A DNA stretch of 64,000 nt, from assembly GCA_963733195.1 (NCBI GenBank), contig CAVTCR010000056.1, positions 96,001 to 160,000 of the forward strand. Reading direction: 5' to 3'. Origin of the DNA: an uncultured delta proteobacterium (GTDB lineage: Bacteria > Desulfobacterota > Binatia > Bin18). The notes below the pieces were generated by a model, which saw only the letters and a list, made by a program, of their open reading frames with translations, searched no databases and was not told the DNA's origin. The translations under genes were made by a program, and so were the position numbers. Shown here piece by piece: positions 2,245 through 49,576 of this stretch; the first letter of the stretch is position 1; each line of letters begins with the position of its first letter.

Positions 2245-4482
2245 TTACGCGTGTGGTGCCGGTTGAGGTTGAGCTAACAGATTGGCAATCGGCTTTACAT
2301 CAAGCCACCACTGTTCTTGTGGACGCTGCTGTGCCAAATCCATGAGACGTGGCAAATCGTCGAGAGGCTGGAATTGTATCTGTCCACCTTGTAACCCAAG
2401 ACACACTGCGGCGGGCGAGGGCTTCTGCGCTTCGGCAATCAGGAAATCAATACTCTGATCGGCAAGCCGCATAGCAAGAATGCGGTCGAACGGTGTTGGA
2501 CTACCCCCCTGCTGTAAATGCCCCAAGATCGCTTGGCGGACATCAAACACGCCTTTCCCTTCCTCCGCAAAGAGGGTGGAGATAAAATCTGTCGTATAGC
2601 GGGGATGGGCGTGTTCGTTACGGATCATGAGACTGAGCCGCTTGCCCTGTTGGAAGCCACGGGTCAAGAGAGCGATATCTTGTTGAAGGTCACTTAGAGT
2701 TATTTCTTCTTCCGGCAAATAGACCCGCTCCGCTCCGGAAGCGAGCCCGCTCATTTGTGCTAGATACCCGCACGTACGCCCCATGACTTCAACGACAAAA
2801 CAACGTCGTGAAGCGACGGCAGATTGTTTGATTTTGTCGACCGCTTCAACGATATTGTTTAGTGCAGTGTCAGCGCCGATGCTTAACTCAGAACCCGGCA
2901 GGTTGTTATCAATAGTTGCAGGCATGCAGAGCAGAGGGATATTAAACGCCGGAAAATTCTCACGCATGCGGTATAGTTGGTAGACGGCTTCATAGCCGGA
3001 CCAGCCACCAATCATCAGAAGTCCCTGAATATGGTGTTCTTCCAAAACTCGCGCTATCGCATAAAAATCCTTTGCACTGGGGATCTTCCGATTGGTTCCT
3101 AATTCGGCACCGCCTAAGAGAGCCCAGCCATTGACGCTCATCCAATTCATTTCGCTTAAATCGCCAGCGATAAGTCCCTGGAAACCGTTACGAACCCCAA
3201 ACATGATGTGACCTCTATCAACTCCTAATCGTACTACCGCACGGACGGCAGTGTTCATTCCTGGTGCTGGTGCTCCTGAGTGCATGACGGCTATACGCAC
3301 TCGTCGTTGTCCAGGTTCTGGGGCGTGCGGTAACGCGCGTACGAGGGTGCGTAGGGTGCGAAAGGCAGCTTGGTAGTTGCGGCCGCGTAGCGACAGGGCA
3401 GTGGAAAAATCACGATTGATGATGGCATTGGTTGTCGCGTGAGTTTTTTCGAGGCAGTCCTGCAATGGTGTCTGTATGATCCGGTTACCACGCATACCGA
3501 TGAGAACCGGGGGTGTCTCAGATGTCGCGGTACGGATCGCCTCAACTGCAGCATATCCTAGGAGTGTGCTGAGGTTACGATCAAACGCGCTAGGGGAGCC
3601 GCCGCGCTGCATATGGCCGAGGATTGAGATGCGTACATCCTCTCCGAGTCGCTCTTCTAGCACTTGTTTAATGTATGTGCTGGTGAGGCGATTCCCTTGC
3701 TGGTCCTGGGCGCCCTCGGCTAGGATAACAATACTGTCGCGGCGACCGGCAGCACGTCCTGTTTTCAATACCTCACACATGCGCGCTTCCCAGTGCTCTC
3801 CTTCTGGAGGACTGCAGGGGATGAGCGCCCAATCAGCTCCACTGGCGAGCGCTCCCATCAGCGCGAGGTAACCACAATGACGTCCCATCACTTCGACGAC
3901 GAACGTACGCTGATGGCTTGCGGCAGTGCTGCTGATAGCATCGACAGCTTCAGTAATCCGATGGAGGGCCGTATCTGCCCCAATCGTCATGTCCGTACCG
4001 GCGATGTCGTTGTCAATCGAACCAGGCAACCCGACCAAGGTAAGCGTAGCGTGGCGAGCCGCCAACTCAGGGCTGATATGGTTGTGCTCAACCAATTCGC
4101 GTATGAGTACGGGCCATTCTTGATGAAAAAGAGCGGCCCCAGCTAAGCTGCCATCGCCACCGATGACCACCAAATTGTCAATTCCATGGTGTAGGAGATT
4201 CTTTGCTGCCTGCAGGCGTCCTGTCCGTGTCCGAAATGCTTCACTACGTGCTGTACCGATAATGGTCCCACCGCGCTGCAAGATGCCACCCACCGCGTCC
4301 CAACTCAGTGGGCGTATGCGTGTGCCACCTTCTACCATCCCCTGGTATCCTTCATAGATAGCGTAGACTTCCATGCCGCGGTCTAAGGCTGTTCGTGTTA
4401 CCGCCCGTACGGCGGCGTTCATGCCTGGGGCATCTCCACCGCTGGTCAATACGCCAAGACGTTTATCGAGTGTATTCGACAT
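2245..4482 (-). CDS. pfkA: 6-phosphofructokinase, tandem two-domain (eukaryotic-type) form
   Basis: 745 aa with two PFK repeats: LTSGGDAPGMN / GGDGS / GSIDND / EVMGR, then HSGAPAPGMN / ATIDNN / EVMGR. Confidence 0.92.
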   Translation of the reverse strand: MSNTLDKRLGVLTSGGDAPGMNAAVRAVTRTALDRGMEVYAIYEGYQGMVEGGTRIRPLSWDAVGGILQRGGTIIGTARSEAFRTRTGRLQAAKNLLHHGIDNLVVIGGDGSLAGAALFHQEWPVLIRELVEHNHISPELAARHATLTLVGLPGSIDNDIAGTDMTIGADTALHRITEAVDAISSTAASHQRTFVVEVMGRHCGYLALMGALASGADWALIPCSPPEGEHWEARMCEVLKTGRAAGRRDSIVILAEGAQDQQGNRLTSTYIKQVLEERLGEDVRISILGHMQRGGSPSAFDRNLSTLLGYAAVEAIRTATSETPPVLIGMRGNRIIQTPLQDCLEKTHATTNAIINRDFSTALSLRGRNYQAAFRTLRTLVRALPHAPEPGQRRVRIAVMHSGAPAPGMNTAVRAVVRLGVDRGHIMFGVRNGFQGLIAGDLSEMNWMSVNGWALLGGAELGTNRKIPSAKDFYAIARVLEEHHIQGLLMIGGWSGYEAVYQLYRMRENFPAFNIPLLCMPATIDNNLPGSELSIGADTALNNIVEAVDKIKQSAVASRRCFVVEVMGRTCGYLAQMSGLASGAERVYLPEEEITLSDLQQDIALLTRGFQQGKRLSLMIRNEHAHPRYTTDFISTLFAEEGKGVFDVRQAILGHLQQGGSPTPFDRILAMRLADQSIDFLIAEAQKPSPAAVCLGLQGGQIQFQPLDDLPRLMDLAQQRPQEQWWLDVKPIANLLAQPQPAPHA

Positions 4483-27465: not shown

Positions 27466-28870
27466 GTAGTCCCTGAAAAAGTCAGGTTGCAGGTACTGGT
27501 AGCGGATGTGCGACAAAATGGCGCCAGAGTTTCTTGAGATTCCAGGCAGAGCCGCTGAGCAGGGCATTAATGCGATCGCCGACTTTCCCTAACAGATAGT
27601 TCCGGTCCATCCCGTGGTCGTGCTTGGTGTGCCCAATGACGGGCTCAATCGCCGAGCGTCGTTTGAGCAGCTTGCTCAACTGTGGGGGGAGATTCCGGCG
27701 GCCTGCGACATAGACTGCGACTGCCTTGGGATGATAGCGCTGGACCGCGAAAGCCTTTATCGACAAAGGCTGCTTCGGGCTGCGTTCCCGTCAAACGTTT
27801 GACTTGAGTGAGCGCCGCTTTTAAGGTGCACCATCATAAGGATTGTCGTGCACGGCATCGATCCCGACAATCGAGCTCTGCCGCGAGGTAGTGACGATGG
27901 GCACTTTGCACCCAAACTCGTAGGGCTTGGGCACTTTGCCTTTGGCAATGCATTCCACTTCCGGGGCATGAACACTATAGACCTTGCCGTGATCTCGGCG
28001 TTGTTGTGTCAAGATCCGCCGCGCGACGCTCACGACCTGTTGCTGCTTTATCGAGAGCTTCAATTTCCCTCGCTCCACATTGCGCAGCACGCGCCCCAAA
28101 TACGTGCGTAGTTTGCGGGTTTCTCGCCGCGCACGCTTGAGTTGCCGCGCTGCCCCATACCGACCTTGAGTCACCAACGCGCGCTTCCCTAGCCGTACGT
28201 AGCTCTGCCGTAACTGGAAGTTACAACTCTGCGCGACCCGCACCAGCGCTTGCCGGGCCTTGTGATACAAGCGCGCATCCGTGGAAACGCGATCGCTTCT
28301 CTTGCACCGTCGTATCCACATTCACACGCTTCACTTCTGTGCGGTGAGCACCGCTTCCCGTTGCGCGCCGCCAACGATTCTTTGAGTAACTTCTCGCTCC
28401 CTTCTACGCCTACCGTTGCCGCCACTTCACTAAACTCGTCGGATCACACGGAACTCGTGGGTAAAATACTCCTCCCCACAGAAATACTGCCAATACGGAT
28501 TCTCCACCCAACTCGCCACGACTACCTCATCACTCACATTATAGAGGTACTTCAAATAGTGTAGCCCCACGAGCAGCCGGGTGGCTAACGCGGGCCGCCC
28601 CAGTTCGGCATAAAACTGACCGAATTGCCGCTCAAATTGTCGCCCAGTTCACCACGCCGGCTAAGCGACACAGCGGATGGCGACGAGTTGAGGAAGTTCT
28701 TCAATAAGACGTCTCCCGGACGGGGCGCTCGATTTTTCGCTTTTCGCCACTTCATGAAATCACCAGCTTTTGTGCCTTTCTGCTCATTTTCTGGCGATTC
28801 TAGCGCCGTCTGCTTGCTGCTGTAGCCCTCGTCTGCACTGCGCTCCCTCCACTTTTTCAGGCTCGACTAC
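27466..28870 (-). mobile_element. IS5-family insertion sequence, frameshifted transposase
   Basis: KVYSVHAPEVECIAKGK, RRSAIEPVIGH. Terminal IRs GTAGTC(GAG/C)CCTGAAAAAGT occur at both ends. Confidence 0.88.
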
Positions 28871-29185
28871 CTAATTTTTTGGTGTTGGAGTGAGGCGCCT
28901 TTGCCTGTCACGCCAACGCGCTGGCTGCCGTTGCCCGCAAGAGCAGGAAGGAAGTGAAGAAAAATAGACAAACTGTGAAGCGAGACATGGCGACAGCGAC
29001 GGGAGCGGCATTGCACGACAAAGCACGCTTGGCTGGCAACGATGGTTGATTGCTAGATACCCTCAAGGCCCCTCCTGGCTCTCCCTCGAAAATAGCGGCT
29101 TCTCTCGGCTGTGCTGCAAGGCAATGGAGAGGCTCTCTGACGACACAACCCATTTTCATTATTCGTTGTGAACCGAGGTTCATGA

Positions 29186-29989
29186 GCCACTGTCGCAATT
29201 TTCAACTGTAAGCGAGCAAGATTATCACTTTTGTGTATCTATACAGCCAGGGCATAGAACTGCTCCGCCGGCGTTTGTGACTCATTCTCCACAGCGAGCA
29301 ACTGCCCCTTACGAATGACATGCATAACTTCTTTGCCGGCGATCGTACAGCGGGCGGACCAAAAGGACTTGAAGCCGAGCATCGGATGTGTGATCCGTTT
29401 CACCGCTCAATGATCCTGCTCCACGAGGTTATTGAGATACTTGGAGTGGCGGATAATGATGGCGGTCTTATGGGTCCTGTTGTAGCGTGTAATCGCTGCC
29501 GTATTCGCCCCACTCTGATCGATAGTGATTTTCTCTGGGAGTCCTTGATTGGGAATGGCTTTACGTAAGAAGGCTTCAGCGGCGTCGAGATCGCGCTGTG
29601 GCGTGAGCAGAAAATCAATGGTGCGGCCCTCTTTGTCGACGGCACGATAGAGATAGGCCCATTGCCCCTTGAATTTTTACGTAGGTTCCATCAAGCCGCC
29701 AGTTGCGTCCTACCCAGCGTTGTCTGCACCCGAGCTGCTTCTCCACCTCCGGCGCATATTTGATGACCCACTGGTCGAGGGTGGAATGATCCCCCGCAAC
29801 GCTACGCTCGCCCCTTATCTCCTCGAGCTGCCGATAGGAGATGGGATACGCGACATACCACCGCACGGCCCACAAGATAACCTCCCGCTCGAAGTGCCGT
29901 CCTTTAAAGTTCATCATGCCGCCGCTCCTCTATCTCAGAGATCAGGGGAGCAGCATAGCGGAATACCCATCACGGGCAACGTTGCGACA
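29186..29989 (-). mobile_element. IS6-family element (degraded); its left IR is split by the IS110 insertion, with the remaining bases at 31400-31404
   Basis: FKGRHFEREVILWAVRWY..SYRQLEE, WRLD.TYVK, YLNN.IE.DH. IR GCCACTGTCGCAA at 29186-29198 resembles IS26 GGCACTGTTGCAAA. Confidence 0.85.
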
Positions 29990-31399
29990 TATATGGACCG
30001 TACCCCCTTTGCAAGGTGATTCTTGAAGATGACAAGATAAGGATTCAGTTGCGGACATATATGCGGCTTTCGTCGGAAAGTACGGAGACTTTCCAGCCCT
30101 GAAGGATTCCGCGCGTGCTCGCCTCAACAAAACCCAGACCTCGAAAGGGCCGTGTCGCAACGCAGGCTCTGAGCACGCTGGTCTGACCTGTAATGCCATC
30201 ACTCGTTTCTCACCTTCGCAACCGTCGGTAAGCGGAACGCACAGATGTCACAGAAATGGTTAGTCCTCTCGCGCCAAGAGACCGGGCCTCTCCTACGCCG
30301 CTTTGCGGTACTCGGCCTCACTGGTCAACAATGCCCAGGCAATGCGCGCATTCTTGTTGGCAATCGCCACCGTCGCAATATTTTTGCCCCGGCGCTGTTC
30401 CAGACTCATGATCCACCGACTGCGGGCATCGGTCTTACGGCGGGCGCGGTGGACTGTCGCCCGCGCCCCGTGAATTAATAATGTTCGGAGGTAGCGGTCC
30501 CCCCGCTTGCTGATTCCTAACAGACGCTCCTTCCCTCCACTGGAGCATTGCCGGGGGACTAACCCCAACCACGCCGCCATATGCCGCCCATTGGCAAACT
30601 CCGTGGCGGTGCCGACCGCGGCGACCAGCGCGGTGGCGATCACCGGCCCGATCCCTTCCCCTGCGCCAGCTTCTGGCACTGCGGCACTCTCAGCAAAGAC
30701 ACGTTGCACCAGGCGGTCTGCACGCAGTAACTCGTGCGTCAAGCGCGACGAGCTGCTTCATACAACTCGCGCATCACTTCCCGAGCCAAGGGGGTCAGGG
30801 CGTTACCCTCATCTTCCACAATCACCGGGAGCTGCTTCCGCAGCCTGGTGATCCCTTGGGCGAATGACGATTCCCCGCTCCGCCAGCAGGCCCCGCACTT
30901 GATTGACCAGGGCGGTACGCTCTTTAATGAGGAGGCTGCGCATCCGGTGGATCGCTTGAATATCTTGGCTCTCCACGGTCTTGAGTGGCACGAAGCGCAT
31001 GTGCGGCCGCGAGACCGCCTCACAGCTTGCCTCGGCATCACGACTATCGTTCTTATTGCCTTTGACGTACGGCTTGACGAACTGAGGGCTAATCAACTTC
31101 ACCGTGTGCCCCAGCTGCTGCAACTCCCGCGCCCAATCTTGTGCACTCCCTCACGCTTCCATCCCAATGACACAGGGAGGTAGCTGCGCGACCGTTGCCA
31201 GGAGCTTGCTCCGCGTCACGCGTTTCTGTAGGGCGACTTTGCCGTGCTGCAGTTACCCCATGCAGTTGGAAGATGCTTTTGGCCAAATCAATCCTGAGTG
31301 TCGTGACTTTCATAGTGAACCCTCCCTCTCTCGTATAATGGTGGATATATTCTGATCCATCATGAGACCCTTGTGTGAGGGGGGCGGTCCATTCCATTA
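29990..31399 (-). mobile_element. IS110-family, IS1111-type element; transposase 30293-31313, frameshifted
   Basis: IDLAK, KGNKND..DAEA, GLVPRQCSSGGK, GISKRG. Subterminal IRs ATGGACCG(TA)CCCC; ends TAATGGAATGGACC...GGTCCATATA; ~300 nt 3' non-coding end. Confidence 0.9.
30040..30205 (-). ncRNA. Putative bridge/seekRNA of the IS1111-type element (boundaries approximate)
   Basis: Stem GCGTGCTC/GAGCACGC plus GCCT/AGGC encloses an internal loop whose two strands match the insertion-site flanks. A second loop contains CATATAT, matching the circle junction. Confidence 0.75.
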
Positions 31400-31433
31400 A
31401 AGCCTCGGAAACTCCTCCCGCCCCTTCGTCGGC

Positions 31434-31460
31434 TCAAGATTGCTGAGGAAGTGCCGATAC
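31434..31460 (+). promoter_or_regulatory. sigma28-like promoter upstream of ORF 31500
   Basis: TCAA-N15-GCCGATAC. Confidence 0.55.
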
Positions 31461-31499
31461 ACGGGAAGGAACAGGAATAGGTAAGAAGGAGGAAACCCG

Positions 31500-31883
31500 A
31501 TGGAAGCTGACAACGACCCCAACCTCAAGCAGGCGATGGCGGAGATCTCCGCCATTTGCCAGCACTATGGAGTCGGCGCAGCCGTCGCACTGGTCTCACC
31601 GATGCACGCAGAGTGGGCGTACCGCATGCCGCCGTGGGGGCGGGTCTCCTTTACCGACGGCGGGATTCGCATCCGCGCCGCGCGCACCGAGTTCCCCTCA
31701 CGTGAAGCTCATCGCCAGGCCGTGGAGCTGACAGCGCATCTCATCCTCCAACTGCGCGACATGGGCTACCAGTTCTACCGCGAGATGGCCGCGCTCGCCG
31801 ACCTGCTAGCCGAACAGGTCAAGATCGAGCACACGCCCTACGGCGGCGAGGACCAGAGCAGGCTGCGGCCTAAGGGCCACTGA
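31500..31883 (+). CDS. Hypothetical protein (127 aa), possibly of phage/mobile origin
   Basis: Strong AGGAGG RBS; visibly higher GC than its flanks; no domain recognised with confidence. Confidence 0.7.
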   Translation: MEADNDPNLKQAMAEISAICQHYGVGAAVALVSPMHAEWAYRMPPWGRVSFTDGGIRIRAARTEFPSREAHRQAVELTAHLILQLRDMGYQFYREMAALADLLAEQVKIEHTPYGGEDQSRLRPKGH

Positions 31884-32115
31884 GCATGAGCGGAACGTTA
31901 GTGCACAGACCCCAAACACCCTAAAAAAGGAATTTTGTGAGCAAAAGAAGGAACGACTTCGACAAAAATTCCTCTTTACTTGCTCGTCTAGGAAGGAGCG
32001 TTTGCGAGAACACGGTTGAGTTCAGATGCAAAAAACTGCACGAGAATCATATCGAAGAGGTGTCCATCCCACTGGGTGCCAGTGGGGTTTGCTCTGGGCG
32101 CTTTGATCGTTGCTC

Positions 32116-32892
32116 TTACGTGGCTTGTGTCCATACACCCTTATATTGATCCCGCGCTTTGACTCTACGCCAATCTGTGAAAGAGTGATGGACCCCACAC
32201 GCGAGGCACCGAGGCGAAGAGAACGCCTCCATGATCTTTCCGCTCTTTTGATAATACTTTGCTGCCATCCCACCAAATTTACTTTCGAGCGCAACACATT
32301 GTGAGAGATAAGTGGTAAGTAAGGTGATCGCTGCAGAGAGCGCTGGACAGGAGGGGCCTAACCAGCGTTGGCGCTCTTGATTCTCTCTCACAATCTTTGA
32401 GGCTTTGTACAAGCGATCACGTAAGTCCTTTCGTGCCGCCCGCGACCATTTTTTCTTGCACAACAGCCGTAGTGCAGTCACTCTACGCTGTAGCGCTGCG
32501 ATGGGAGGGCCTACGTGAGACAGTGCTCGTGCCAAGAGAGGGGGCACGGAGCAAAAGTAGAGGGTGGCATACACGGCATTCCTCTCAACTTTCTGAAAAG
32601 TCATAGTGAGGCGGGCCATGTGCGGATTCGAACTTGACTGTTCTAGTGGCGGAAGGAGAGATTCAACCTTCCTCCATCGTTCTGCGACCTCGGCCGCACC
32701 ACGGAGAAGAGCAGTTTCGTACTGCTGGTGTGCTGCTTCTGCACTCATCTTTTCTATAGCTTCGTCAGGGCGCTCTAGCCCTTGGCGGGTTGGGTCTTCA
32801 GGCGATGCTTCTAGAAGCTTTTGGAGACTAGGAACGTCTTTGAGTAAGCTCTCGGAGAAAAAAGATGCACTCTGCTCATCACCAGTAGGCAT
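32116..32892 (-). CDS. Hypothetical protein (258 aa)
   Basis: Longest ORF in the interval; no motif recognised. Confidence 0.5.
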   Translation of the reverse strand: MPTGDEQSASFFSESLLKDVPSLQKLLEASPEDPTRQGLERPDEAIEKMSAEAAHQQYETALLRGAAEVAERWRKVESLLPPLEQSSSNPHMARLTMTFQKVERNAVYATLYFCSVPPLLARALSHVGPPIAALQRRVTALRLLCKKKWSRAARKDLRDRLYKASKIVRENQERQRWLGPSCPALSAAITLLTTYLSQCVALESKFGGMAAKYYQKSGKIMEAFSSPRCLACGVHHSFTDWRRVKARDQYKGVWTQAT

Positions 32893-33292
32893 TTGCTTTT
32901 TTCGCGTCCGTGTTCGATGGGGAAGGAAGTTTTGGGGGAGGTGCTCAGTGCTTTCGTGTGCGCCACTACCTGCGCTTCTTCAGGTTGCTCCTGCTTGTAG
33001 AGAAGAGGGAAGGCGAGGCAGGAGAGACACCCGCTATGTCAGCTACGATGATCAGCTGTAGCCTATCCCCTTCAGATCGAGGTCAGTGTATGCCTACGTT
33101 CGCTTCCCGTCTACCTCCGTGTCAATGTCACAACCTGTGCGTTTACGTCTGGGTTGTGTGTCGTGCGTCACGATGCGCGATTTTGCGCAGGGAAGGTGTG
33201 GAAGTATGAAGAATATCACGGGCTGTGGTCACCTGGGATATGTCGTACCGGCTTGAGGAGTGGCCGATCTGATCGTTCTCTCACAAAGTTGG

Positions 33293-39337: not shown

Positions 39338-42300
39338 TTACGCGAGTACCTCAGTCGTCAGTTTGCCCAAGGCGGGTGTCAGTCGCGAGAGTGCGGCTTC
39401 CAAATGGACAAGCGCATCAGAGGCCTGAGTTAAATCGCCATAGCGACCTATGCGTTCAAGGGTAAATGCTGCTTCAAATGCGTCACTGGCAGCGAAATTA
39501 CCAACTGATCCCTTCAGGGTGTGGGCTGCATATGATAGGGAGGACGAGTCTTTCTTGCTAATCGCCTCCTGGATTTGTGCTAAGAAACGAGGGTATTCTT
39601 CGAGAAACAGGGCTGCCATCTCGCCGAGCAGTTCTTTGTCTCCGTCAACTCTGGCTAACGCCTCCTGCGCATCAAATGCCTCTTTTACCTTTACTGGAAC
39701 GAGAGTTGTGACCGGAGGTGGACTTTCTAAACGAGGTGCCGATGCTTTTTGCAACCACCGGTCTAACGCAGCCTTAAGTTCTTCAGACCGGACGGGTTTC
39801 GATACATAGTCATCCATGCCTGCCGCGAGACAGCGCTCTCGATCCCCCTTCATGGCATGGGCGGTGACGGCGATGACTGGGGTATGGATTCCGTCTTGCA
39901 CATCACGCTTGCGGATCTCAGCAGTTGCTTCAAAGCCGTCCATTTCCGGCATTTGACAGTCCATCAATACGATGCTGTAGCCGAGTTGAGACATGGCTTC
40001 GACTGCCTCGATCCCGTTGGCGGCAACGTCGGCCTGATGACCGAGTTTTTCTAGCAGGCGAACGATGAGTTTCTGGTTGACCGGGTTATCCTCAGCGACC
40101 AAAAGCCGCGGTGTTTTAGGAACCGAGGGGGGTGTCGCAACGACATCTACAGGTACTTGTACGGGGTCTACTGAATTGGGCCGGATACCTTCTTGATCCT
40201 GTACATTCACTACAGGTACTAGAGAGGGGCGGAGCGCGACCTCTGACGAAGGGGAAACCAGCACGGTGGGTGGCCGTTTTTCTGCGGGCTTCTGTGGCAA
40301 AGCAGGAGCCTTAACCACTGAGACCTCTTGTGTGCGAGGAAGAAATCGATTGAGGGAGACCTTCAAATCATCAGACTTTACGGGTTTCGTGATGTAGTCG
40401 TCCATGCCTGCGGCGAGACAACGCTCTCGGTCTCCCTTCATCGCATGGGCAGTGACGGCGATGACAGGTGTATGCTGCCCTTTCTCGCTATCACGTTTGC
40501 GAATCACGGCAGTTGCTTCAAACCCATCCATTTCTGGCATTTGACAGTCCATTAAGACCGCTGCGTAAGAGACCCGAGAGAGCGCATCGATGGCTTCCAA
40601 TCCATTCGCCGCAACATCGGCACGGTAGTCCATTTTCTCAAGAAGCCGAGCGATCAGCTTTTGATTTACCGGATTGTCTTCAGCGACCAGAATTCGCGGT
40701 CGCGTTTGATGCTGTGCCTCCGCGAGGGTATGCCGCGTCACCAATACGGGCCGAGCAACTTCTTGCGGCTTTGCCGGTTGTCCCAGCACGGTGCGTAGAC
40801 ACTCGTAGAGTTGTGATTGCCGCACCGGTTTTGTGAGGTACGCATCAATACCAACATCTCGTGCTCGTTCGCCATCGCCGCGCCGACCGACTGAGGTTAA
40901 GAGCACTAACCGTGTGGCGGCTAGTGCAGGATTGTTGTTAATCTCTTTAGCGAGAGAAATCCCGTCCATCTCCGGCATCTGAAAATCAAGAATAGCAAGA
41001 TCATACGCACGGTCTTCTTCAGCGGCAGTCGCGAGCATTTCGAGTGCCTGGTGTGCGTCCTTAGCGGTGTGAGGTTTCATACCCCACGATGTCAGTTGAT
41101 GGCGTAGGATCGTCCGATTGGTCTGATTATCGTCGACAATCAGTGCACGCAGGCCATTGAGGTTGGCACGAAGCGGACTCGTTGGGAGCGTATCATGGGC
41201 TTGCTTCTCGAAGGGGATCGTAAACCAGAAAGTACTTCCTTTGCTTAAGTCACTCTCAACGCCAATCTCTCCTCCCATAAGTTCCGTGAGTTTTTTGCTG
41301 ATGGCCAAACCGATGCCTGTACCGCCGTACTTGCGCGTCGATGACGCGTCAACCTGAGAGAACGTTTGGAACAACCGATCCATACGCTCCGGTGGAATGC
41401 CGATCCCGGTATCAGAGATCGCAAACTTGACGATAGCATGCGTAGCGGTCTGACTGATGAGCATGACACGGAGGACAATTTCACCGTGTTCAGTGAACTT
41501 CAGGGCATTGCCGACCAAGTTATTCAAGACTTGACGAATACGTCCAGGGTCGCCTCGCAGGGCGGAGGGGACATCGTGATAAATGAGACACGCAAGTTCC
41601 AGCTTTTTATCGTCAGCCTGTGTGGCAAACAGGTCGACGACTTCTTCAACTGTAGGATGCAAGTCAAAGTCGATCACCTCGAGGTCGAGTTTGCCCCCTT
41701 CGATTTTCGAGAAATCGAGAATCTCGTTGATAATACTTAACAAGGATTCTGCGCAGCCTTTGACGGTTTCGGCATGCTCGCGTTGCTCCGGCATGAGTTT
41801 GGAGTCGAGCAACAGTCCGGTCATGCCCAAGATGCCGTTCATCGGCGTACGAATTTCGTGGCTCATGTTGGCGAGGAAATCGGACTTCGCCTGATCGGCA
41901 GCTTCGGCAGCTTCTTTTGCTTTTTGCAAGGTTTCTTCTGCTCGCTTGCGCTCAGTGATGTCACGCAAGGAGGCAATGACGGCAGTCTCTCCTTCCCAGG
42001 AGGTTTCCACGCCGCGCATTTCTGCAACGAGAATGTCACCGTTCTTCCGTGGGATGACAACCTCGGAAGTTTTACCGATCGAGATGGGGAATGCCAACGG
42101 TGTATTGAGAATAGCTTCTGCTGGTCGTTCCAGCAAAGCCTCAGCGGCTGGGTTAATGAAATGTACGATGCTATCTTGATCGACCACAATGATGGCGTCA
42201 GCGTTGTGCTCAAGTAACCGGCGATGATTCGCTTCCGAGATCGCGAGTTTCCGTGTCCGTTCCCTGACGCGTTGCTCAAGCTGTTCGTTGAGCTTCTTTA

Positions 42301-47998: not shown

Positions 47999-49576
47999 TT
48001 ATCGCGGAAGCATCGTGCGGATGAGATCGGATAATCTCCCGGCTGTCAGACCTTCGGATTCTGGAATAATCCTCGCATGCTCGTACCGATGAAGTAGCGC
48101 GAGTGCATTCTGGAAATGTCGACGGGCGTTCTTAATTTTCTTTTGTCGGAGAGAGAGGTTCCCCAGGGTGAAATGCGCGAGTATAAACTCGCTATCGAGG
48201 TATAATGTTTGTCTGAGAGCCTGGGTTGCTTCTTCTTCCCGGCCTTGCTCGAGGAGGACGGTAGCTAAGAGGTAATAGAATCGCGGATTCAATACATCTG
48301 TGGCGATCGCTCTGTGGCACCAGGCAATGGCTTCGTCAAGTGCACCTTGGTTCGTACAGGTGCGAATCAGCAGGAGCGTTTCCTCTTGATTAAGAGGAGA
48401 CGGCTCTTGCTCCTGGGACAACAACACGTCGCGTAATTTCTCGCTCGCCTCAGTATAGTGACCTTGTCTGTATAGAGTTTGTGCTTCTGCGTAGGCTGCT
48501 GACGCCTGATTCGACACTGGAAACAGTTTGCCCTCGAGTGTCGGAGTAGAATTCGGGAGTATTGCCACAAGCTGTTCGTTTTCCTTGATCTGTGTGGAGA
48601 ACAATGGCTCAGCCAGGGCTTTCAGATCAGACAGGTGTTGAGCGTGCGGACGGCTGGAGGTCCCTGCCAGTGACGGTAGGGCAAGTGGCTTCTCTCCGAA
48701 CGCTGACTGATGGGGATGTACACCTTTGCGATGGACAATGATGCCCGGCAAGGGGATGGCCGTAAAAGGGGACTGTGAGAGATACGGTGTCTCACTTGGA
48801 CTGACGATTAACCATCCACCCTCAGCGAGTGTATAGTGGAAATTACGAATCACCGTTTGTGCTCGTTCTGATGAGAAATAAATGAAGACGTTGCGACAGA
48901 AGATGACGTCAACCGTAGCCGTGGTGTTCAGCGGGGGAGGAAAGACTTCGTCTGCGAGATTGAGCGGGAAAAAAGTCACCATTTGTTTGATCTCTGGGCA
49001 GATCACGAACCGACTGTCAGTCGTACGTTGAAAGTAGCGGGTCTTGATCCATTCTGGGGTGTTACGGAAGGACCAGTCGGTATACACACCGCTTGTGGCA
49101 CGCTGTAAAAACCGAGGGTTAATATCCGTTCCGATGATTGAGACACGCCAGTCGGAAAGCTGTGGACTCATCGTGGCAAGCGTGATGGCGATGGAATACG
49201 GCTCCTCGCCGGTACAACAGGCGGCGCTCCAAATACGGATGTGTCGTTCCCCGGATTGTCTATCCTGTATGAGTGCTGGAAGGATCTGTGTCGTCAGCAC
49301 TTCGAGTCCTCGATGTTCACGAAAGAAGTAAGTCTCACCTACAGTGAAATGGTCAGCGAGTACGGCGATTTGTTGCTGCGTGAGCGGAGCGGAATGTAAC
49401 CAGTCAATACAGGCCTGGACATCGGAAAAGCCAAGATCGCGGGCGGCTGCACGAATCCCACGTTCGAGATCGTGCCAGCGGTCAGACGGGAAATGCCATC
49501 CCATTCGCGTGGCAATGAGACTACTGAATTGTGCAAGGACAAAATCTGGAAGCGAAGTGACGGGCATACCCCCCAC
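47999..49576 (-). CDS. cheR: CheR methyltransferase with C-terminal TPRs (WspC-like)
   Basis: VGETYFFRE, WSAACCTGEEPYS, IFCRNVFIYF, TPR helices. Confidence 0.93.
   Translation of the reverse strand: MGGMPVTSLPDFVLAQFSSLIATRMGWHFPSDRWHDLERGIRAAARDLGFSDVQACIDWLHSAPLTQQQIAVLADHFTVGETYFFREHRGLEVLTTQILPALIQDRQSGERHIRIWSAACCTGEEPYSIAITLATMSPQLSDWRVSIIGTDINPRFLQRATSGVYTDWSFRNTPEWIKTRYFQRTTDSRFVICPEIKQMVTFFPLNLADEVFPPPLNTTATVDVIFCRNVFIYFSSERAQTVIRNFHYTLAEGGWLIVSPSETPYLSQSPFTAIPLPGIIVHRKGVHPHQSAFGEKPLALPSLAGTSSRPHAQHLSDLKALAEPLFSTQIKENEQLVAILPNSTPTLEGKLFPVSNQASAAYAEAQTLYRQGHYTEASEKLRDVLLSQEQEPSPLNQEETLLLIRTCTNQGALDEAIAWCHRAIATDVLNPRFYYLLATVLLEQGREEEATQALRQTLYLDSEFILAHFTLGNLSLRQKKIKNARRHFQNALALLHRYEHARIIPESEGLTAGRLSDLIRTMLPR

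Follow-up and report, generated by a model that had tools for sequence, protein, structure and literature searches.

An insertion sequence (IS) of the IS1111 type splits the left terminal inverted repeat of an IS6-family element in the stretch of DNA analysed here (64,000 nt of assembly GCA_963733195.1, contig CAVTCR010000056.1, positions 96,001-160,000 of the forward strand; hereafter the window, to which coordinates refer). Very probably, this element entered the IS6 repeat while it was still active, under the guidance of an RNA from its own 3′ non-coding end, and the copy seen today is a fossil of that event. We base this on the anatomy of the insertion, on its membership of a conserved RNA scaffold, on the complementarity between two loop segments of that scaffold and the flanks, and on the co-variation of loops and flanks among relatives.

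On the minus strand, GGCTT (31404-31400) is followed by the element (31399-29990) and then by TGTCGCAACG (29989-29980). Excising 29990-31399 in silico joins the flanks into GGCTTTGTCGCAACG and so rebuilds an IS6 left repeat, as a first-pass annotation of this DNA had claimed. The host element thus consists of the outer five nucleotides of its left repeat (GGCTT, 31400-31404, minus strand) and a remainder at 29186-29989 (minus strand), which comprises the inner left repeat (29981-29989), a transposase pseudogene (29245-29917) and the right repeat (29186-29198), the latter reading GCCACTGTCGCAA on the plus strand, also as annotated. An IS6 copy on contig C73 of the same genome, 76% identical to the host at the DNA level and with an open 242-amino-acid frame, begins with an unsplit repeat (GGCTTTGTCGCAAC at C73:129991) that agrees with the joined flanks and represents the empty site. 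This fixes the ends of the inserted element to within one ambiguous T (31399 or 29989), which can be assigned to neither element nor flank, and agrees with the 7-nt left and 3-nt right extensions of the IS1111 family. There is no target-site duplication, in keeping with that family, the flanks GGCTT and TGTCGC having only the ambiguous T in common. The IS6 assignment of the host rests on its gene, an IS240/IS26-type DDE transposase (PF13610, 113.9 bits), and on its short repeats, GGCTT/TGTCGCAAC (here and below the solidus marks the insertion point) and GCCACTGTCGCAA, which follow the pattern GG...TGTYGCAA; PLSDB matches to the gene are annotated as IS6 family transposase. The host gene carries two internal stops (one TGA and one TAA) and a frame change at about codon 81-84.

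Two short segments of the 3′ non-coding region, both on the minus strand, are complementary to this site. The first, CGUUGCGACA (30162-30153; CGTTGCGACA in DNA letters), is a top-strand guide complementary to the right flank TGTCGCAACG at 10/10 positions. The second, GGUUUUGU (30134-30127; GGTTTTGT in DNA letters), is a bottom-strand guide that fits the target GGCTT/TGT at 7/8 positions and places one U opposite a bottom-strand G. The first-pass annotation had described these segments as an exact 10-nt reverse complement of the right flank and as a junction match with one C/T difference, and both descriptions were confirmed. The top-strand guide precedes the bottom-strand guide and both cover TGT, which is the arrangement described for IS1111-type seekRNAs, with a top-strand match 5′ of the bottom-strand match and an overlap of the two in the target (PMC11187229).

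The guides lie in the internal loop of a scaffold supported by an alignment of 91 distinct scaffold regions, with an 8-bp outer stem, a short second stem and an inner hairpin. In the window the 5′ arm of the outer stem is GCGTGCUC (30178-30171; GCGTGCTC in DNA letters) and its 3′ arm GAGCACGC (30120-30113), with compensatory changes in all eight pairs across the 91 sequences. GCCT (30167-30164) and AGGC (30124-30121) form the second stem, and the inner hairpin (30137-30151, minus strand) separates the two guides, its helices (helices 3 and 4 of the alignment) being paired in 94-97% of the sequences. Overall, 89.0% of cells were paired, compared with 31.5-38.3% when partners were slid, and the covariation score was 0.643, compared with 0.062-0.141 for slid partners; none of 500 shuffles matched it. 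The fold drawn in the first-pass annotation (30113-30178) had its stems and loop segments in the right places, and its outer stems stand. Its UUCG tetraloop departs slightly from the family consensus, which prefers a 4-bp hairpin (30151-30148 with 30140-30137) and a 7-nt loop; nothing of substance changes with it. The minimum free energy fold of the single sequence also retains both outer stems, and there the guide segments pair with each other.

A covariance model of the bridge RNA or seekRNA type, the check suggested by that annotation, located the same region independently of the window. This model (R1) was trained on 80 of the 91 sequences, omitting the window, the four other elements found in IS6 repeats (see below) and six rows that aligned badly (L025, L062, L064, L071, L106 and L154). 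It gave a single, full-length match in the window (30097-30188, minus strand; 60.4 bits, E 1.6e-11), which includes the target-binding loop and was again the sole match across the whole genome.

Relatives were sought in several collections. The protein database contains many intact relatives of 338 amino acids with 80-88% identity, all metagenomic, while the nearest transposases in named genomes or plasmids reach about 57% identity or less. Genome contigs yielded relatives at most 62% identical, and a scan of metagenome contigs gave 80 loci, five of them close (81-89%), with both ends present in L105 alone. A DNA search with the whole element against 401 genomes of the same phylum returned short patches only. 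In PLSDB, queries that spanned the junctions of the window and L133 elements were matched in their IS6 gene part alone, and no record covered 80% of either query. Contigs of four soil sequencing runs, searched at 80% likeness, gave short fragments only, with neither junction bridged by 31 letters. In one of the close relatives, L107, similarity ends about 90 nt past the scaffold (from about position 3735), as if interrupted by another insertion.

Both ends could be identified from sub-terminal repeats in 116/161 sequences, and 104 of these had sufficient flank on both sides. An exact complement of at least 8 nt to the right flank was found in the element's tail for 40/104 own flanks and 12/2044 mismatched pairings, and an exact junction-spanning word of at least 7 nt for 61/104 own flanks and 146/2044 mismatched pairings. 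Across the 104 elements the positions of the two guide matches are fixed; the top-strand match comes first and about 23-28 nt separate it from the other. In 83 elements the bottom guide equals its own flank from L-5 to R2 in a fixed register (83-94% per position), against control values of 25-31% at L-5 to L-1, 53% at R1 and 76% at R2. The top guide is displaced by one base in register from subgroup to subgroup, and its per-column figures are lower for that reason. Most other relatives occupy palindromic sites resembling repetitive extragenic palindromic (REP) sequences. No homologue was seen to carry the same loops at an unrelated site. Such a homologue would have spoken against the proposal in the first-pass annotation of a 3′ RNA programmed against IS6 ends; together with the R1 match and the co-varying homologues, this negative result leaves that proposal well supported.

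Sites of the form GGNNN/TGTYGC were found for 5/104 elements, namely that of the window and those of loci L105, L112, L117 and L133, and the guides vary with the repeat variant, so that the flanks of homologues do rebuild IS6 repeats in step with their loops, a check that the first-pass annotation had proposed. The window site GGCTT/TGTCGCAACG is matched by guides CGTTGCGACA and GGTTTTGT; L105, at GGTTT/TGTCGCAAAC, carries TTTGCGACA and GGTTTTGT; L112, at GGTTC/TGTCGCGTTG, carries AACGCGACA and GGTTCTG; L133, at GGCTC/TGTTGCAAAA, carries TGCAACA and GGCTCTG; and L117, at GGATG/TGTCGCAAAT, carries the top-strand guide TTTGCGACA. All five insertions occur at one position of the repeat and point the same way relative to it, in keeping with the site- and orientation-specific insertion of the IS1111 family. 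The three loci with enough flank (L112, L117 and L133) have IS6 transposase genes there. The site of L133 leads into the N-terminus of the IS6 transposase, whereas L112 and L117 lead into the C-terminus on the opposite strand, which indicates that both ends of IS6 elements are hit.

Two further candidates were not counted. An IS6 gene lies 75 bp past the right end of L062; there, however, the IS6 repeat begins 17 nt beyond the insertion site, and the element sits in a GGCC...GGCC palindrome (L062 4268-4300), outside and adjacent to the IS6 left repeat GGGTTCTGTCGAAAA rather than within it. L153 (right flank TGTTGCACGACG) has no IS6 gene in its flank.

In the transposase tree the five elements fall at three places, requiring at least three state changes, and an approximately unbiased (AU) test rejects a single clade for them (p 2.4e-12), the group having been named after a first tree had been seen. 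The same scaffold, directed at other IS6-type repeats, is found in relatives whose transposases are intact, and IS6 ends are in this sense a natural target that recurs. The fuller form of this reading, that at least three transposase lineages acquired or kept such targeting through the rewriting of two short RNA loops, and that these elements are RNA-guided hyperparasites which split and silence IS6/IS26-type ends, is plausible, and we advance it tentatively, a little short of calling it probable.

Downstream of the target-binding loop, segments that correspond to the element's ends probably make up a donor loop. In the window, a candidate donor guide CAUAUAU (30057-30063, minus strand), found by word search, combines the right end CATATA with the first left-end base and may serve this function. 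A donor-like word of this kind (right end plus first left-end base, at least 6 nt, range 6-8 nt) occurs in 89/91 tails. In the 15 rows inspected it lies about 28-38 nt past a conserved CAGGG motif and varies with the right-end extension (ATA, GTA, CTA or ACA). The segment directly before CAGGG, compared with the left-end complement, gave a weak signal (mean 6.5/9, controls 5.9), and in the window it is degenerate (5/9). By eye, elements starting with TAATG had a right flank beginning with T and those starting with CAATG one beginning with C, at all loci. This pattern suggests that, at the crossover, donor and target have a single base in common rather than a dinucleotide core.

In the mechanism we propose, RNA from the 3′ non-coding region of an active IS1111-family element would guide its insertion into the left inverted repeat of an IS6-family element, after base 5 and before base 6. 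This RNA would fold as a conserved scaffold of stem, internal loop and hairpin. In the right half-site TGTCGCAACG, the top strand would pair with the 5′ side of the loop, while the 3′ side would pair with the bottom strand over the GGCTT/TGT junction. Both matches would overlap at the crossover, as they do in published IS1111-type seekRNAs. Segments further downstream, matching the ends of the element, would probably contain the donor part. The RNA would accordingly have been made by the element and have directed this particular insertion, which would have disabled the IS6 end, and later decay of both the inserted element and its host into pseudogenes would leave the fossil. By analogy with IS5075/IS4321 in Tn21-type repeats, where the transposon is said to be left 'deficient in further mobilization' (PMC5034289), the insertion may also have immobilized its host.

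Several observations weigh against this scheme. The transposase of the window copy is broken, and its bottom guide has one mismatch to its own site. The folding energy of the single sequence is unremarkable (z -1.2 for 73 nt and z -0.18 for the whole 307-nt tail), so that the case for an RNA relies on comparison. An Rfam scan of 28000-33000 (E up to 10) gave chance-level matches only, none near a gathering score, and a search of sequencing runs for this stretch found it in no RNA run, with all shares at or below 0.14. An exact top-strand match of at least 5 nt was absent from 26/104 relatives, part of which is due to register shifts or misjudged ends. The IS6 cases recovered number only five, the right flank of L105 is 30 bp long, and the bottom guide of L117 fits at 6/8 positions.

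The mismatch in the window raises the question of wobble pairing. The first-pass annotation had suggested that U-rich guide positions are an adaptation by which one guide covers C/T variants of IS6 repeats through G:U pairs, the alternative being a near-cognate hit or a later mutation. In its favour, the window guide GGUUUUGU meets GGCTT with a U opposite G, and the identical guide of L105 meets GGTTT perfectly. Among bottom guides, however, 54/574 cells did not match, and these included 14 wobble-type and 14 non-wobble transitions, with no excess of the former; mismatches of non-wobble type also occur in L117 and in L107, where the guide GGTTGTGT stands opposite the left flank GGTAG. These counts neither support nor refute wobble tolerance, and we consider such an adaptation unlikely.

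Recognition of the IS6 repeat, or of a structural feature of it, by the transposase protein alone, with the loop and flank matches as by-products, was the default view for IS4321/IS5075 before 2024, and the Rfam and RNA-run searches gave no direct support for an RNA at this locus. Against this, the loops change together with the flanks at set places in the scaffold, across 104 elements whose targets differ widely, and in IS1111-type relatives the RNA was experimentally essential and reprogrammable (PMC11187229). We therefore regard protein-only recognition as very improbable. Slightly less credible still is that the 3′ region captured target DNA, for instance by imprecise excision, and that the complementarity is a scar rather than a guide. 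A second stretch, GCATATATGTCCGCAAC (about 30064-30048, minus strand), does resemble the right junction CCATATA/TGTCGCAAC, and we considered it as a second end or as captured target. It was rejected in both roles: what follows the donor-like word is a motif conserved in the family (TGNCNGCAA), present also in elements with other targets, such as GGATCTATGGCTGCAATCGA in L209, which lies in an IS5-family repeat. Moreover, the guides proper stand in opposite senses within the internal loop of a co-varying scaffold, which a captured fragment would not produce. That the IS6 element inserted beside a pre-existing IS1111 element can practically be dismissed. The two do abut and both have decayed, but the insertion divides the IS6 repeat, leaving 5 nt beyond the 1410-bp element, and the joined halves equal the intact repeat on C73.

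The RNA-guided element itself is a member of the IS1111 type, as its family domains, sub-terminal repeats, 7-nt and 3-nt extensions and long downstream non-coding region agree with the account of that family in PMC11187229. Characteristic of the family are sub-terminal inverted repeats of 11-13 bp and extensions of 7 bp on the left and 3 bp on the right. It spans 1410 bp (29990-31399, minus strand), its ends being set by the sub-terminal repeats, the extensions and the intact IS6 repeat at C73:129991. The left extension TAATGGA (31393-31399) is followed by the left sub-terminal repeat ATGGACCGCCCCCC (31379-31392), and the right sub-terminal repeat GGGGGTACGGTCCAT (29993-30007) by the right extension ATA (29990-29992), all on the minus strand; both repeats were found by an end search across relatives and pair as ATGGACCG...CCCCC with GGGGG..CGGTCCAT. 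The upstream leader is 86 nt long and the downstream non-coding region 303 nt (29990-30292, minus strand). Between them lies a DEDD transposase pseudogene of the IS110 family (30293-31313, minus strand), whose fragments match PF01548 (DEDD_Tnp_IS110, 36.9 bits) and PF02371 (Transposase_20, 82.2 bits). With its breaks read through, it is 78% identical over 318 residues to an intact 338-amino-acid relative, compared with which it changes frame at about codon 21, meets an in-frame TGA at about codon 54 and runs out of frame over about codons 150-195. These three defects make the gene a pseudogene and the copy a fossil. The element is present once in its 6.9-Mb genome, and the remaining IS110-family genes of that genome show only 28-40% identity over the C-terminal part.

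Partridge and Hall (2003) are said, in papers citing them, to have found IS4321/IS5075 inserted in transposon terminal inverted repeats. These elements resemble ours in being of the IS1111 type and in entering another transposon within its terminal inverted repeats, always at one position and in one orientation. Their host has a 38-bp repeat of the Tn21 subgroup of the Tn3 family, whereas that in the window is an IS6 repeat of about 14 bp, and the setting here is environmental rather than a resistance plasmid. ISEc11, ISPa11, ISKpn4 and ISPst6 (Siddiquee et al. 2024, PMC11187229) likewise possess a DEDD transposase, sub-terminal repeats, 7-nt and 3-nt extensions and a non-coding region downstream of tnp, and have the top-strand match 5′ of the bottom-strand match with overlap in the target. 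The targets given for them in that account are a REP sequence or attC, in contrast to the IS6-family terminal repeat in the window, where moreover the copy is dead and its RNA predicted. IS621, of the IS110 group (Durrant et al. 2024, PMC11208160), also has a structured RNA from a non-coding end, in which the two halves of a loop pair with different strands of the target or donor; the same study predicts a right-end bridge RNA in 93.0% of IS1111 elements. Compared with IS621 as presented there, the RNA of the window lies in the right end, the guide order is reversed and the sub-terminal repeats are long, while the crossover is a single T, not a CT dinucleotide, and the donor loop is a prediction.

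Another relative aims at the end of a different IS. L209 (NZ_CP124705.1, 2420-3800), on a Klebsiella plasmid, has a transposase 57% identical to that of the window and the same scaffold, and its guides UUUAUUCA and GCUUUGUUGA match a site, GGCTTTGT/TGAATAAAT, inside the end of an IS whose annotation reads 'IS5 family transposase', not IS6. We presume this host repeat to be of the IS903 type. Loci L147, L149 and L155 belong to the same IS5-repeat group. By tblastn, transposases of the L209 type (about 57% identity) occur in many Klebsiella plasmid records, the insertion site having been inspected in L209 only.

The genome that carries the window holds further traces of related elements. Dead left-end stumps are present at about C30:16114-16176 (minus strand, C30:16174) and about C85:9790-9936 (plus strand), the latter retaining about 25 codons. 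They adjoin GGTTC and GGATC respectively, with which IS6 repeat types present elsewhere in the genome begin. Head-to-head IS6-family fragments occur at C73:128286-130743 and C12:92793-94870, at most about 1.5 kb from other, distant IS110-family genes. Within the window, TGTCGCAACG occurs four times on both strands together, against 0.15 expected, and none of 100 shuffles reached four; two of these occurrences are the flank and the loop. The other two exact copies (40133-40142, plus strand, and 48889-48898, minus strand) lie within long reading frames (1182 and 525 amino acids), and no inverted-repeat pair was found around either. They are probably due to chance, although four occurrences against 0.15 is striking.

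A search of open-access papers and preprints found no report of IS1111 or IS110 elements in IS6, IS26 or IS6100 repeats. The seekRNA or bridge RNA mechanism and the targeting of transposon ends by IS4321/IS5075 are already known; what seems to be new is the IS6 end as a target, which is apparently undescribed. IS6-family elements, of which IS26 is the best known, are major movers of bacterial genes, and a natural RNA-guided element that lands in their end repeats would show one class of IS preying on another by means of a rewritable address. Being a fossil, the window copy is valuable as evidence rather than as a working system. Five variants of one repeat provide a clean set of guides and targets for studying mismatch tolerance in IS1111-type elements and, if the reading given here is true, nature would already provide, in intact relatives of the L105 type, a scaffold addressed to the IS6 repeat class.

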